From IMG/VR virus record IMGVR_UViG_3300022932_000015, positions 30,210-94,209 of that record: a stretch of DNA of 64,000 bases; one strand, 5' to 3'. Each line of letters starts with the position of its first letter. The stretch's first letter is position 1. The translations under genes were made by a program, and so were the position numbers. Below the pieces are notes generated by a model. It saw only the letters and a program-made list of their open reading frames with translations. It did no database searches and had not been told where the DNA came from. Of the stretch, positions 19,759-30,326 are shown piece after piece. This stretch comes from a virus.

Positions 19759-20244
19759 TTAACCAATCTTCTTTTTCTTTCTAATGTCAGAGATAACTTG
19801 TCTTCTTACATTGTATAATTCACATATAGACTTTATAGTCTTGTGTGGATTGTTTTCAATATCTTTCAAGACTTTTTCTATCAATTCAGTAGAATACTTT
19901 TTGTTTACTGGAATATTACCCTTCTTGAATTTGTATGATTCCATATTCATAAGTGGTAGTCTGCCTTTTTTGTAGGCATCTTTCATGTTATCAGAATGTG
20001 TACCTAAAAATAGATGTTTAGGATTAACACATAAAGGATTATCACATTTATGACAGACAAATACATTTGAATCATTTATTTCACCATACTTAAGTATATA
20101 TGATAATCTGTGACTATCAATTATTCTTTTCTGATATCTTATAACTCCATAATTACCTCTCATTCCTGCTTTCCATTCCCAACAATCTTCATCATTATTA
20201 GTTACTCTTACTTTACTCCAGAATCTTTCGATTATAGTACTCAT
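19759..20244 (-). CDS. HNH homing endonuclease
   Basis: CWEW, SHRLSY, VCHKCDNPLCVNPKHL..GTHSDNM; start reassigned to MSTIIERF just after the tmRNA 3' end. Confidence 0.85.
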   Translation of the reverse strand: MSTIIERFWSKVRVTNNDEDCWEWKAGMRGNYGVIRYQKRIIDSHRLSYILKYGEINDSNVFVCHKCDNPLCVNPKHLFLGTHSDNMKDAYKKGRLPLMNMESYKFKKGNIPVNKKYSTELIEKVLKDIENNPHKTIKSICELYNVRRQVISDIRKKKKIG

Positions 20245-20257
20245 TTGTTTTAATTTG

Positions 20258-20646
20258 TGGAGCTGGACAGGTACGATCTGTCGTGTTCCATAATTCATTA
20301 TTAATTTTCTACAAGTTTAGCATATCTTTTTCTCCTAATGCAGGATATTTGATTCTTAATCAAAAAAGCAACACATTGGCTAGTTATAGTCTTCCTATGT
20401 GTGAAGTGGTTGACTTTCCAATATTAGGCTGCTAACTCTAATTCTGCAATTGGGGCAGATGTCAATTTAATGACTTTTGCTGAAGCGCTTTTTACAACTG
20501 CAAGAACATCAGCGATGCCTCCTACTTCGTTGGTTATTACAACATTGTCCGTTAGAACTTGAAACCATAGATTAAAGTGATAGATAACATCTCACTACTT
20601 GCTTATCAATAAATTATTACAGAGTCTATAGCCAACTCTCAGCCCC
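20258..20646 (-). ncRNA. ssrA: transfer-messenger RNA
   Basis: 5' GGGGCTG pairs with 3' CAGCTCC-A including the G3:U alanine wobble; T-arm GACAG-ATCGTAC-CTGTC; internal ORF ending ...AELELAA-TAA (stop 20424-20426); 389 nt. Confidence 0.9.
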
Positions 20647-20755
20647 AATTCTTTATACTTTACTTTAATCCCTTTTTACAATTAAGATACTAAGGATTGT
20701 TTAAAGAATTTATTTTTTACTATGTTAGTATAGTTAATATTATGTGTATTAAAAT

Positions 20756-20818
20756 ATAAGTAACTTGACTATTAGAATTGTAGTTGTTGTAATTCGAGTT
20801 GTTGAACACTAAACTACT
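20756..20818 (-). repeat. DGR template repeat TR2
   Basis: 63 nt, non-coding, AAC/AAT-rich; ungapped match to 20904-20966 with 15 mismatches, all at TR adenines. Confidence 0.95.
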
Positions 20819-20831
20819 AGAAGTTATAATA

Positions 20832-21281
20832 TTAACGTTGAATGATTTTGTATAAATGAGCATAATTCTTACCTACAAAATCAGAGGTTTTCTGATCTTT
20901 GAAATAAGCAACCTGACCAATAGAACAGTAGCTGCTGTAATCCGAGCTGAGGAACACCAAACCACCTTTTTTATCATTCTCATGATAAGGATACCATTTC
21001 TGTTGGTCATGATCAGTCCAATCTAAGATCCAATCTTCATTAAAGAATTTTTGTACTTGTTTTAATTGAGCAACTGCTACATGAAATTCTATCTCTTCTG
21101 GTGTGAATAAATTAGAAAAGTGCTCTGATTTTACTTCATATTCTTTCAAAGCTCTACATATACTTGGATAATCAGCTCCTATTTTGAATAAATCTGCGGG
21201 AGCATTTACTACCTTTTCTAGTTCCATTATTGTTGCTTTTAGCTCATTGATTTTTTCCTGAGCTTTCTTTTTATCTGTCAT
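20832..21281 (-). CDS. DGR target protein 2 (149 aa)
   Basis: Contains VR2; ATG overlaps the RT TGA; paralogue of target 1. Confidence 0.9.
   Translation of the reverse strand: MTDKKKAQEKINELKATIMELEKVVNAPADLFKIGADYPSICRALKEYEVKSEHFSNLFTPEEIEFHVAVAQLKQVQKFFNEDWILDWTDHDQQKWYPYHENDKKGGLVFLSSDYSSYCSIGQVAYFKDQKTSDFVGKNYAHLYKIIQR
20904..20966 (-). repeat. DGR variable repeat VR2
   Basis: Encodes GGLVFLSSDYSSYCSIGQVAY; TR2 in the same frame reads SSLVFNNSNYNNYNSNSQVTY. Confidence 0.95.
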
Positions 21282-22225
21282 AAGTATTTATTTTTTAAGT
21301 TTATACTATTACAATGAGATAACCATCCATTGTAGCTTGCTATTGATTTTTTATTATTATTTTTCCTGATCATTCTTATAAATCTTAGTTTTATACTCTT
21401 TCTCAGTAAAATATGTGTATGATAAGATTTATATCCAAGGAAATCTATTCCTCTAGATTTTACAGGAAATATTTGATAATTTGATTTTATTTTAAGTTTC
21501 AAATTTACATTTAGATATTGCTCTATCAAATGTAATATTCTGTGTAATTCTTGTTTATTGCTTCCCAATATAACTAAATCATCACAATATCTAAAATAGT
21601 ATTTTACTTTTAAAGTTTCTTTAATCCAATGATCAAAATAGCTTAAATAAAAATTAGCAAAATATTGAGATAGATAATTTCCAATAGGTTGTCCTTTACA
21701 ACTATCTATTATATTACTCAATAAACTCAGTAGATTTTTATCTTTAAATTTCTTGAGTAATAATTCTTTTAAAATATCGTTATCAATGTTTGGGTAGAAC
21801 TTTTTGATATCTAATTTTAAGCAGTATTGAGTCTCCTCTTTGTTTTTTAATGCTTTATTTAGAGAATTTAGACCTTTGTGTATACCTCTATTCTTTATAC
21901 AGTTATAAGTATCTTTAGTAAATGTTGATACAAATATAGGTTCTAAAATATTCATTATAGCATGATGTACTATTCTATCTGGGTAATAGGGTAACTTATA
22001 TATTTCCCTTTCTTTTGGATCAAAAATTGTGAATATTTTGTATTCTGACGTGTTATAGTTATTGTTTAATAGTATTTGATTTAAATTTAATATATTATTA
22101 TCATAGTTCTTGTCAAATTCTATTACGTCTTTATTTTTAGATTTACCAATTCTAGCCTTTTTATCGGCTAGTATTAAATTATCTATATCACAAATTTTAT
22201 TATATAAGTTACCTATTCGTTTCAT
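21278..22225 (-). CDS. DGR reverse transcriptase
   Basis: DRIVHHA, KLDIKKFYPNI, GQPIGNYLSQ (DGR-type SQ motif), YCDD, GIDFLGY; 315 aa with no maturase or endonuclease domain. Confidence 0.95.
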   Translation of the reverse strand: MKRIGNLYNKICDIDNLILADKKARIGKSKNKDVIEFDKNYDNNILNLNQILLNNNYNTSEYKIFTIFDPKEREIYKLPYYPDRIVHHAIMNILEPIFVSTFTKDTYNCIKNRGIHKGLNSLNKALKNKEETQYCLKLDIKKFYPNIDNDILKELLLKKFKDKNLLSLLSNIIDSCKGQPIGNYLSQYFANFYLSYFDHWIKETLKVKYYFRYCDDLVILGSNKQELHRILHLIEQYLNVNLKLKIKSNYQIFPVKSRGIDFLGYKSYHTHILLRKSIKLRFIRMIRKNNNKKSIASYNGWLSHCNSINLKNKYL

Positions 22226-22323
22226 CTTATACTTCTTAAGTCTCTTTCAATAGTTTACTAAAGACTCTTTAAGTTTGTTATCTTTTACCCAGTGGTATGG
22301 TTAATACTAATTAGTCTAAAATA

Positions 22324-22382
22324 TAATAAGTAGAGTAGTTAGAATTGACATTATAGTTGTTCACGTTATTCAGTACCTAACT
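22324..22382 (-). repeat. DGR template repeat TR1
   Basis: 59 nt, non-coding; ungapped match to 22472-22530 with 15 mismatches, all at TR adenines. Confidence 0.95.
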
Positions 22383-22395
22383 AAAACATTTAGTA

Positions 22396-22749
22396 TTAAC
22401 CTAAATATGAATTGTATAATTTTATAAGCTCATTTGCCATCACTCTTGCTGTATCTTCTTTCTTATAATAGTAAGAAGCAGAGAAGTGAGAAGTGACACA
22501 ATAGCTGTACACGCTACCCAGCACCCAACCATCTTCTTTAGAAAATCTAAAATATGGTAGATACTTATATTCATTACCATTGTTAAAGTCTGGTTCCCAT
22601 ATTTTGTCATCATTATCTAGATAGTTTTTTGCTTTGATTATCGTCTCTAAACTGTAAGATATCCAATCTTTCTTCCTTCTAAATTGATGTTCTACATATC
22701 TTTGATGACCAACTTTAAATAATATTTTCTCAGCTTCTTCTAAACTCAT
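22396..22749 (-). CDS. DGR target protein 1 (117 aa)
   Basis: Contains VR1; WEPDF...YKYLPYF motif paralogous to WILDW...QKWYPYH in target 2. Confidence 0.9.
   Translation of the reverse strand: MSLEEAEKILFKVGHQRYVEHQFRRKKDWISYSLETIIKAKNYLDNDDKIWEPDFNNGNEYKYLPYFRFSKEDGWVLGSVYSYCVTSHFSASYYYKKEDTARVMANELIKLYNSYLG
22472..22530 (-). repeat. DGR variable repeat VR1
   Basis: Encodes GWVLGSVYSYCVTSHFSAS; TR1 in the same frame reads S*VLNNVNNYNVNSNYSTY. Confidence 0.95.
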
Positions 22750-22754
22750 AATTA

Positions 22755-23150
22755 TTATTTTTCAGATTTTTCCTCTTTACTTAATTCTTTGATTTGTTTA
22801 TCTAAGAATGATGAGACTAACTCACTTGTTTGAGAAGGTATTTTACATATGCTTGTATCCTTTGATATCCAATCAATAGTCTTGCCCCCAGCTATAATTA
22901 ATATTGCTTCATTTTTAGATGGTGTGAGAGTTATGCCTATTATTGCAATACCAATTAGAATAAATGCCCATATTATTTTCCATCTGTTCTTTCTAGTGTA
23001 TATCTCATTATCATCTCCCTCTATATGATTTATAAACTTTATAAAGTAGAATAGTACCATCATTGCTATCCCTATAGTTAATATAGCATTGAACATTCCA
23101 TTTAAAGAATCTAGCCTTGTTAGCCAATATAATTTCCAATATATATTCAT
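22755..23150 (-). CDS. membrane protein
   Basis: Two hydrophobic segments; YWLTRLD and PSK motifs. Confidence 0.65.
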   Translation of the reverse strand: MNIYWKLYWLTRLDSLNGMFNAILTIGIAMMVLFYFIKFINHIEGDDNEIYTRKNRWKIIWAFILIGIAIIGITLTPSKNEAILIIAGGKTIDWISKDTSICKIPSQTSELVSSFLDKQIKELSKEEKSEK

Positions 23151-23174
23151 ATTTTTATGTTTTAGTTGTTTTTA

Positions 23175-23363
23175 TTAATTTTCATTGTACATTGATATAT
23201 ACTCTATTATTAAGGCTATCATTATCAGTGGTAATCCTAATACGCATATTGTTAACATTAACATCACGGAGTAAAATACATTAAAGTCTTCTAGTATATC
23301 GAAGACAAATAGTCCTAGTATAAAGAAATTTAATGCAAAGTAAATTGTTATCATTATTTCCAT
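23175..23363 (-). CDS. small membrane protein
   Basis: Almost entirely hydrophobic, 62 aa. Confidence 0.5.
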   Translation of the reverse strand: MEIMITIYFALNFFILGLFVFDILEDFNVFYSVMLMLTICVLGLPLIMIALIIEYISMYNEN

Positions 23364-23480
23364 ATTTCATTTTTAAATTGTTATTAATGGTTATTATAAT
23401 AAACCCCTCTAGGAAACTGGAATAACCTAAAGGGTTTATTATACTGAAAGTAAGCTTAGATAAGCTTTACTTCTTTGTTG

Positions 23481-23551
23481 ATGCTCTACTAGGACTCGAA
23501 CCTAGATTAATTCCCGAGAGGAATTCTCCTATCCAGTTAGAGGATAGAGCA
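23481..23551 (-). tRNA. atypical tRNA, tentatively Glu(CTC)
   Basis: Acceptor TGCTCTA/TAGAGCA, D-loop AACTGGAT, anticodon arm AATTC-CTCTCGG-GAATT, T-arm CTAGG-TTCGAGT-CCTAG; 71 nt, no encoded CCA. Confidence 0.7.
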
Positions 23552-23592
23552 CACATTACATGGCTATAATATTAATTAACTATCTAATTGAA

Positions 23593-24045
23593 TTATGCAT
23601 TCAATTTAGCTTTTGAAGCTAAAGAACTAGATACAACTGGTTCTGAGATGCTATCATGTTTGATAAATACATCTTCTACATCTGCATCTTCAGTGTATTC
23701 TGTTTTGAAGTAGATTTGAGCTCCACCTTTTAAACACATACCACCATCTGGTCCTGCTTGTTTAGGTTTCATACCTAACTCTTGAGTTAATGATTCAGTA
23801 GTTACAATTCTTCCAGGTAATTCTAATCCATCGTGGATCTCACCTAATTGAACTGCCTTCATTGCATCATCATAGTTTACTGTTTTTAAAGCAGATTTAA
23901 CTTTTCCTCCTGCTACTGCTGATCCAAATGAGAATTTTCTTTCTTCAATGCGGATGTAACCATACTGTTTACCATCTTTACCTAATTCTGGATTTTTTGT
24001 TACGATTACACCTGTTGTTGGGTTTGCTGTGATTCTTACTGACAT
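23593..24045 (-). CDS. hypothetical protein (beta-rich)
   Basis: ORF track; A-rich leader. Confidence 0.7.
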   Translation of the reverse strand: MSVRITANPTTGVIVTKNPELGKDGKQYGYIRIEERKFSFGSAVAGGKVKSALKTVNYDDAMKAVQLGEIHDGLELPGRIVTTESLTQELGMKPKQAGPDGGMCLKGGAQIYFKTEYTEDADVEDVFIKHDSISEPVVSSSLASKAKLNA

Positions 24046-30033: not shown

Positions 30034-30326
30034 AGTACACCTGTGGTTAACACAGACCACCCACGAGGGACTTAGTTAAATAGTGGGTTAGAAGTTGGAT
30101 AATAGTCTGCAGACTTGAAATAATAGTCAAACATAGCTGGATGAAGTTTCTCCGATAGTGTAAAAAGGTTCTTTATAGAGGGATTAATACATTGGGAACA
30201 TGAGCTACAAGGTAGGCTTTTGAATTGACAAGACAAAGTTTCCATTAGGGCTAAATACTGGTATTATGAAATCTAAGAACTAATCCAAAAAGACGAGTCT
30301 AACTCTGAAGGGGAAAACTATGTTTA
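30034..30326 (+). ncRNA. candidate structured ncRNA, unidentified
   Basis: No ORF, higher GC than flanks, several complementary segments (see finding). Confidence 0.5.

Follow-up and report, generated by a model that had tools for sequence, protein, structure and literature searches.

We examined a retroelement in a 64,000-nt stretch of viral DNA (hereafter the window) that covers positions 30,210 to 94,209 of the IMG/VR record IMGVR_UViG_3300022932_000015; all coordinates below are positions in this stretch. The record, which has 94,209 bp and was judged complete, encodes a large terminase that is about 35% identical to the terminases of crAss-like phages, and we assign it by sequence to a distant crAss-like phage. 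The minus-strand region 20647-22749 is assigned likewise to a diversity-generating retroelement (DGR), in which a single mutagenic reverse transcriptase (RT) is flanked by two template cassettes, each comprising a target gene, a template repeat (TR) and a spacer. The order on the minus strand is target 1-TR1-spacer 1-RT-target 2-TR2-spacer 2, and each TR is enclosed by a predicted RNA scaffold, which is the subject of the present account.

All features of the element lie on the minus strand. The RT gene (21278-22225) encodes 315 aa with the motifs IGNYLSQ and YCDD, in agreement with the pair [I/L]GxxxSQ and YxDD used as a criterion for DGR RTs, and its protein matches RVT_1 and, among the PHROGs, the DGR reverse-transcriptase family phrog_1423 (E 2e-117). 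Target gene 1 (22396-22749), an open reading frame (ORF) of 117 aa, belongs to a small-protein family of DGR targets and holds the first variable repeat (VR1), and target gene 2 (20832-21281), an ORF of 149 aa matching phrog_11581, has a start that overlaps the RT stop; both are homologous to other targets. Spacer 1 measures 85 nt and spacer 2, which ends at 20647, about 95 nt. Between 20100 and 23600 no terminator-like site was detected, and promoter-like sites were not commoner there than in shuffled sequence.

VR1 (22472-22531) matches TR1 (22324-22383) over 60 nt, and VR2 (20902-20965) matches TR2 (20754-20817) over 64 nt, the offset from VR to TR being 148 nt in each cassette. TR1 and VR1 differ at 15 positions, 15/15 of them TR adenines; TR2 and VR2 also differ at 15 positions, again 15/15 at TR adenines and with no other base changed, and for both pairs pooled 30/30 differences fall on TR adenines. 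Because the mismatches of the second pair are confined to adenines over 64 nt, TR2 and VR2 appear not to have drifted since the last homing. Both template cassettes look functional on these grounds, and the proposal of an earlier note on this DNA that TR2 is functional gains support from the adenine-only mismatches as well as from the conservation of a second cassette in relatives (see below).

Avd (PF05635) is absent from the 94-kb genome, and none was found among the neighbouring ORFs of the window and its relatives in comparisons with Pfam, NCBIfam and PHROGs. Only 13 nt (22323-22311) in cassette 1 and 10 nt (20753-20744) in cassette 2 separate the TR from the 3' strand of the closing duplex described below, which leaves no room for an Avd-binding hairpin. 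Since Avd occurs in about 74% of DGRs, it is not obligatory, and Avd-less DGRs are documented as a class (Wu et al., PMC5758913).

Paired elements of the two scaffolds

In each cassette the TR is enclosed by a closing duplex, which is followed by a short hairpin, a run of adenosines with a single-stranded linker, a long stem-loop and a AAGTATAA tail; the whole RNA would measure about 180 nt, and its closing arms stand 79-82 nt apart. In cassette 1 the duplex has 12 bp, its 5' strand (22390-22401) including the target-1 stop codon TAA (22398-22396) and its 3' strand (22299-22310) ending in an ACC that is conserved in the family. There follow the hairpin (22286-22297; 4 bp and a 4-nt loop), the A-run and linker (22267-22285), the long stem-loop (22239-22266), in which a 7-bp stem pairs 22266-22260 with 22245-22239 and which carries a conserved UAGUA/GAA interior loop, and the tail (22227-22234), the counterpart of a family-conserved AAGCAAAGG just before the RT start codon; the hairpin and the long stem-loop are backed by covariation. 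Cassette 2 repeats this arrangement with a duplex of 11 bp, the 5' strand (20826-20836) including the target-2 stop codon TAA (20834-20832) and the 3' strand (20733-20743) ending in ACT, a hairpin of 5 bp with a 3-nt loop (20718-20730), an A-run with linker (20699-20717) and a long stem-loop (20667-20698; 7-bp stem 20698-20692 with 20673-20667), the last three placed by folding and by a covariance model, and a tail (20653-20660). In both copies the A-run directly follows the small hairpin on its 3' side, and both duplexes end 1-2 nt ahead of the hairpin, in matching register. The positions given in the earlier note for both inverted repeats, the stop codons, the small hairpins and A-runs, the 7-bp stems and the AAGTATAA words proved exact.

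A comparison of copy 1 with copy 2 revealed five double, compensatory changes (two each in the closing and the long stem, and a single one in the hairpin), one G-U pair at the same place in both copies and one terminal pair lost in copy 2; the compensatory changes described before, including the two in the long stem and the conserved G-U, are thereby upheld. Minimum-free-energy folds give all three helices in both cassettes, and either closing repeat, taken by itself, outscores about 98% of shuffles. Both of these folds also predict an outer helix that prolongs the long stem, formed by the leading bases of AAGUAUAA and a segment on the 5' side of that stem. The AAGTATAA word is retained in cassette 2 although no ORF follows it there, and it may either belong to the RNA or be left over from the RT translation start region. 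A pseudoknot in which the conserved 3' tail would pair with the small hairpin's 5' strand, considered by eye on alignment A3, was rejected, the tail being unchanged in relatives in which the hairpin strand has changed. As a separate observation, the 5' arm of cassette 1 (22382-22400) is 79% complementary over 19 nt to the 3' arm of cassette 2 (20733-20751), and the two might conceivably pair with each other on one transcript, an idea weakened by the compensatory differences that separate the duplexes.

Conservation and covariation among relatives

The relatives comprised 80 IMG/VR loci with an RT at 60-72% identity and 80 metagenome loci, none of the latter above 66% RT identity. A covariance model (R1) was trained on the spacers of 64 relatives, with no window sequence included. 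Run with filters off over the whole window, R1 recovered spacer 1 with 51.8 bits (E 5e-8; 22222-22305) and spacer 2 with 39.9 bits (E 1e-5; 20654-20738), the next-best match reaching 18.4 bits, and the two spacers were also its only matches in the complete 94,209-bp genome. A model built from homologues thus finds both spacers, and the further remote TR cassettes for which the earlier note had suggested a search of the genome did not turn up. Among the relatives, R1 placed the motif ahead of the RT in the 80 IMG/VR loci (83 matches) and before nearly all RTs of the 80 metagenome loci (77 matches), none of which had contributed to the training. The family motif upstream of the RT start opens with ACC and a hairpin of 4 bp; there follow an invariant A-run, some 15 nt, a bipartite stem whose interior loop holds UAGUA and GAA, and the AAGCAAAGG tail. 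Its most conserved part is the A-run, which is invariant in 65 relatives, and the family duplex ends, beside the hairpin, in a conserved GG/CC pair.

Over the closing duplex, small hairpin and long stem of 67 homologous cassettes, 91.9% of cells are paired, compared to 36-46% with partners slid, and the covariation score is 0.558 compared to about 0.1; the observed values were reached by 0/500 shuffles. Both-sided changes affect 24/25 pairs, among them 11/12 closing pairs, 4/4 hairpin pairs and 7/7 long-stem pairs. When the AT-rich subclade, to which the window belongs, is taken alone, 84.9% of cells are paired (35-56% with partners slid), and in 10/10 of its cassettes (window 1 and 2; L001a and b; L007a and b; L010; L067; L080a and b, where L numbers denote loci and a and b their cassettes) the 5' arm just upstream of the TR pairs with the 3' arm, which ends 0-2 nt before the hairpin, with a single bulge in 2/10 cassettes. 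The GC-richer majority shows the same duplex with another distal sequence and one bulged G. Consensus folding of 57 GC-richer full-length cassettes recovered the closing duplex unprompted, and de novo consensus folding of the relatives recovered all three helices; G-U pairs are tolerated in the closing duplex. As judged from these alignments, the scaffold is real, occurs in duplicate and is maintained by selection, and the strong covariation across homologues bears out what had been supposed from the two copies of the window.

A second cassette with the arrangement RT-target-TR-spacer downstream of the RT recurs with the same synteny in L001, L007 and L080, at an RT identity of 66-71% and a target identity of 25-43%, and its mismatches are adenine-only in L001, in L007 and in cassette b of L080. 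An extra TR-plus-scaffold cassette was observed in a metagenome relative (L125; 207-395, 2270-2500), where it lies 2.1 kb upstream of the RT and has its own closing duplex and its own VR, with 15/16 mismatches at adenines.

The relatives also bear on the claim that the closing stem covers the stop codon of the target. This is true of both window cassettes but not as a conserved feature: the stop codon lies within the 5' arm in 5/9 cassettes examined (both window cassettes, L001a, L007a and L010) and 3-12 nt upstream of the arm in L001b, L007b, L067 and L080b. From the sequences, the overlap seems to be a side effect of the GGTTAA in the arm together with compact gene packing.

Known counterparts and the proposed mechanism

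The closest described counterpart is the DGR RNA of Bordetella phage BPP-1. The cryo-EM structure of its RT-Avd-RNA particle shows the spacer base-paired to the 3' end of avd, the gene upstream, in a duplex that runs into a short stem-loop, followed by unpaired adenosines which dock into G:C pairs at the duplex end, an arrangement termed the "cPRT Stop"; beyond it lie a single-stranded "Thumb Ring" and a long stem-loop, broken by interior loops, that binds the RT (Handa et al., bioRxiv 10.1101/2023.10.23.563531). The cPRT Stop is needed for cis-primed synthesis and marks its end point, and duplexes between upstream sequence and spacer were predicted in 207/278 DGRs (10.1101/2023.10.23.563531). 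In BPP-1, compensatory changes that restored the duplex did not bring cDNA synthesis back. The window RNA resembles that of BPP-1 in the order and spacing of its elements, namely an upstream:spacer duplex, a short stem-loop, adenosines, a single strand and a long stem-loop with interior loops before the RT. It shares with BPP-1 the G:C pairs at the hairpin-proximal end of the duplex and the short stem-loop directly after it (1-2 nt), then adenosines, for which A-minor contacts are suggested by analogy, so that the A-run and linker of cassette 1 would be the analogue of the A-minor adenosines and the Thumb Ring of Handa et al.; the stem-loop at the spacer's 3' end, which also has interior loops, is the putative RT-binding element. 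However, the window lacks both an Avd gene and, at the spacer's 5' end, a stem-loop for Avd binding, the TR stands 10-13 nt from the duplex strand compared to about 58 nt in BPP-1, the 5' strand derives from the 3' end of the target gene itself and not from avd, and the RNA would measure about 180 nt, with the scaffold occurring twice for one RT.

The spacer part of the scaffold is, by its match, a near-member of the Rfam family RT-17. This RT-associated motif was described by Weinberg et al. in 2017, who proposed a DGR role for RT-10 only and left the others open (PMC5737381). RT-17 (RF03020) aligns over its full length with spacer 1 at 35.6 bits, short of its gathering score of 40.4, and scores 34-44 bits in the relatives, of which L003 and L030 pass the gathering score; RT-14 (RF02921), another motif of that study, gives 27.3 bits with spacer 1 (gathering score 48.1), and at gathering thresholds Rfam returns nothing in the window. 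Hairpin, A-run, stem with UAGUA/GAA and AAGCA tail are shared with RT-17, whereas the closing duplex is not in the Rfam model. The architecture is thus already known, since it matches both the published Bordetella phage DGR RNA and RT-17, and the window presents a compact, Avd-less and duplicated variant of it.

DGRs with more than one TR and target for one RT have been reported, with three TR-VR pairs in the Zeta crAss-like phages Lera/ct1yV3 (PMC12386605) and two TRs in a Stenotrophomonas DGR (PMC6642488). The window resembles them in this respect but has a complete scaffold for each TR; a scaffold per TR is not described there, and we found no description of a complete one in the literature on multi-TR DGRs. 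It differs from Lera, moreover, which has Avd and shows non-adenine changes in the extra pairs, whereas both pairs of the window are adenine-only. A more distant likeness is that to the msr-msd RNA of retrons, in which the template also lies within flanking inverted repeats, a structured RNA is recognised by the RT and synthesis is cis-primed from an internal 2'-OH. Retrons differ in that their RTs form another clade, they have no VR and no adenine mutagenesis, and their product is msDNA instead of a homing cDNA. Handa et al. draw the parallel with retron cis-priming themselves (10.1101/2023.10.23.563531).

Taken together, these comparisons make it very probable that the window contains two copies of a cis-acting DGR RNA scaffold, one for each TR, which both serve the single 315-aa RT of an Avd-less DGR. 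By analogy with BPP-1, the long stem-loop and the single strand would dock the RT, and the duplex with its hairpin and adenosines would position the template and halt polymerisation at the 5' end of the TR. The cDNA would be cis-primed from an RNA nucleotide in the linker of 10-13 nt between TR and 3' strand, and, once adenine-mutagenised, it would replace the adjacent VR. For cassette 2 the RT would have to act in trans; this cassette is probably co-transcribed with the RT and target 2, because there is no terminator between them. The earlier note had called the scaffold an RNA for RT recognition and priming. Its likeness to the BPP-1 DGR RNA agrees with that description in general, but the closing stem would, by the same analogy, be a polymerisation-stop and positioning duplex and not the primer.

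Several observations weigh against two working scaffolds of this kind. The folding z-scores of the single sequences against shuffles are weak (-1.0 and -0.5), as expected at a G+C content of 20-30%, and support therefore rests on the comparison with relatives and not on thermodynamics. For the template:primer duplex between TR and spacer, which in RNAs of the BPP-1 type goes with a priming adenosine 2 nt before the duplex strand, reading the sequence yielded only candidates of 4-6 bp, none conserved in both copies. With Avd gene and Avd-binding hairpin both missing, the mechanism can be transferred only partially from the Avd-dependent Bordetella system. Cassette 2 in particular has a closing duplex of almost only A-U pairs, one of the two conserved G-C pairs being lost with the change from ACC to ACT, its spacer scores below spacer 1 with R1, and it has no match to RT-17 at E up to 10; there is thus a small chance that this cassette is impaired. 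One might go further and regard cassette 2 as a decaying duplicate that resembles cassette 1 by common descent and contains a defunct TR2. The 12 bits by which spacer 2 falls short of spacer 1, the missing Rfam match, the want of the nearly invariant C at the duplex end and the lack of an RT gene after the cassette would all fit decay. We nevertheless consider this improbable, as the copies differ by five compensatory double changes with only one terminal pair lost, VR2 and TR2 differ at 15 adenines and at no other base in 64 nt, and the downstream cassette has been kept in L001, L007 and L080 despite the divergence of their RTs and targets.

It is quite improbable, too, that the inverted repeat is mainly a DNA element for target recognition or recombination, or a translational device that hides or exposes the stop codon of the target. 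A DNA hairpin near the VR is described as serving target recognition in the Bordetella phage DGR (PMC3240598), and arm and stop codon do overlap in both cassettes of the window and in L001a, L007a and L010. An arm distance of 79-82 nt is, however, unfavourable for a cruciform, the tolerated G-U pairs fit RNA and not DNA, the stop codon precedes the arm by 3-12 nt in the four cassettes L001b, L007b, L067 and L080b, and the 3' arm keeps a constant register with the hairpin, as in the solved ribonucleoprotein. Repeats and hairpins that arose by chance, or hairpins of the terminator type, might be suspected in AT-rich DNA, where the region contains many imperfect inverted repeats (129 pairs) and the folding z-scores are weak, but we deem this extremely implausible: the stretch 20100-23600 is free of terminator-like sites, A and not U comes after the hairpin on the coding strand, an independent model finds both spacers, and covariation backs the helices.

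Returning to the duplicated scaffold, a more far-reaching version of it can be considered, in which the window holds a natural, minimal, Avd-independent DGR, composed of the 315-aa RT and a portable, trans-acting RNA module of about 180 nt in two orthogonal copies. The compensatory differences between the duplexes would then keep each copy's own strands paired on a shared transcript, and ribosomes stopping in the 5' strand might gate folding and so couple mutagenesis to the translation state of the target. We think this combination rather unlikely.

How mutagenic reverse transcription proceeds without Avd has been a question ever since Wu et al. surveyed DGRs in 2018 and found avd to be missing from about one quarter of them (PMC5758913). 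The RT clade described here offers for its study a compact and comparatively well-defined RNA, which appears to retain duplex, hairpin with A-run and RT-binding stem but has no Avd-binding hairpin. With two diverged scaffolds for a single RT, the phage would also provide a natural internal replicate, by which the requirements for cis-elements become directly testable, and the arrangement suggests a smaller chassis for DGR-based tools of targeted mutagenesis. For annotation, these findings show Rfam motifs of the RT-17 type to mark DGR template cassettes, and the spacer model can be used to find extra or remote TRs.

Target family and neighbouring features

The targets across the RT clade (L035:1907-2287, L018:1402-2275 and others) form one family of small proteins of 117-168 aa, matching phrog_11581, with 25-43% mutual identity. 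In L018 (1402-2275) and L043 (1422-2289) two tandem paralogous small target genes precede one TR (33% identity, E 2e-15). The AlphaFold model of target 2, a confident one (pLDDT 84.8), consists mainly of helices and places the VR in a loop of low confidence; a Foldseek search of this model against the PDB gave no match, and a C-type lectin fold is not evident from it.

One base after cassette 2 begins a tmRNA-like gene (20255-20646, minus strand), which matches Rfam RF00023 with 28.7 bits (cut-off 47; E 8e-10) and for which ARAGORN makes no call. Its 5' GGGGCUG pairs with the 3' CAGCUCC acceptor strand, and at its 3' end it shares bases with the beginning of an HNH endonuclease ORF (19759-20298). 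It is a matter of speculation that an RNase P cut at the 5' end of this tmRNA-like gene could set the 3' end of the second DGR RNA.

On the other side of the element, target 1 is immediately preceded by an ORF of 131 aa (22755-23150, minus strand). This ORF, which does not encode an Avd, shows weak matches to pilin-like conjugal-transfer and membrane protein families, among them NF045849 at E 2e-5, below the cut-off of that family. A gene for tRNA-Glu with the anticodon CTC (23480-23551, minus strand) is situated about 700 nt upstream of target 1.

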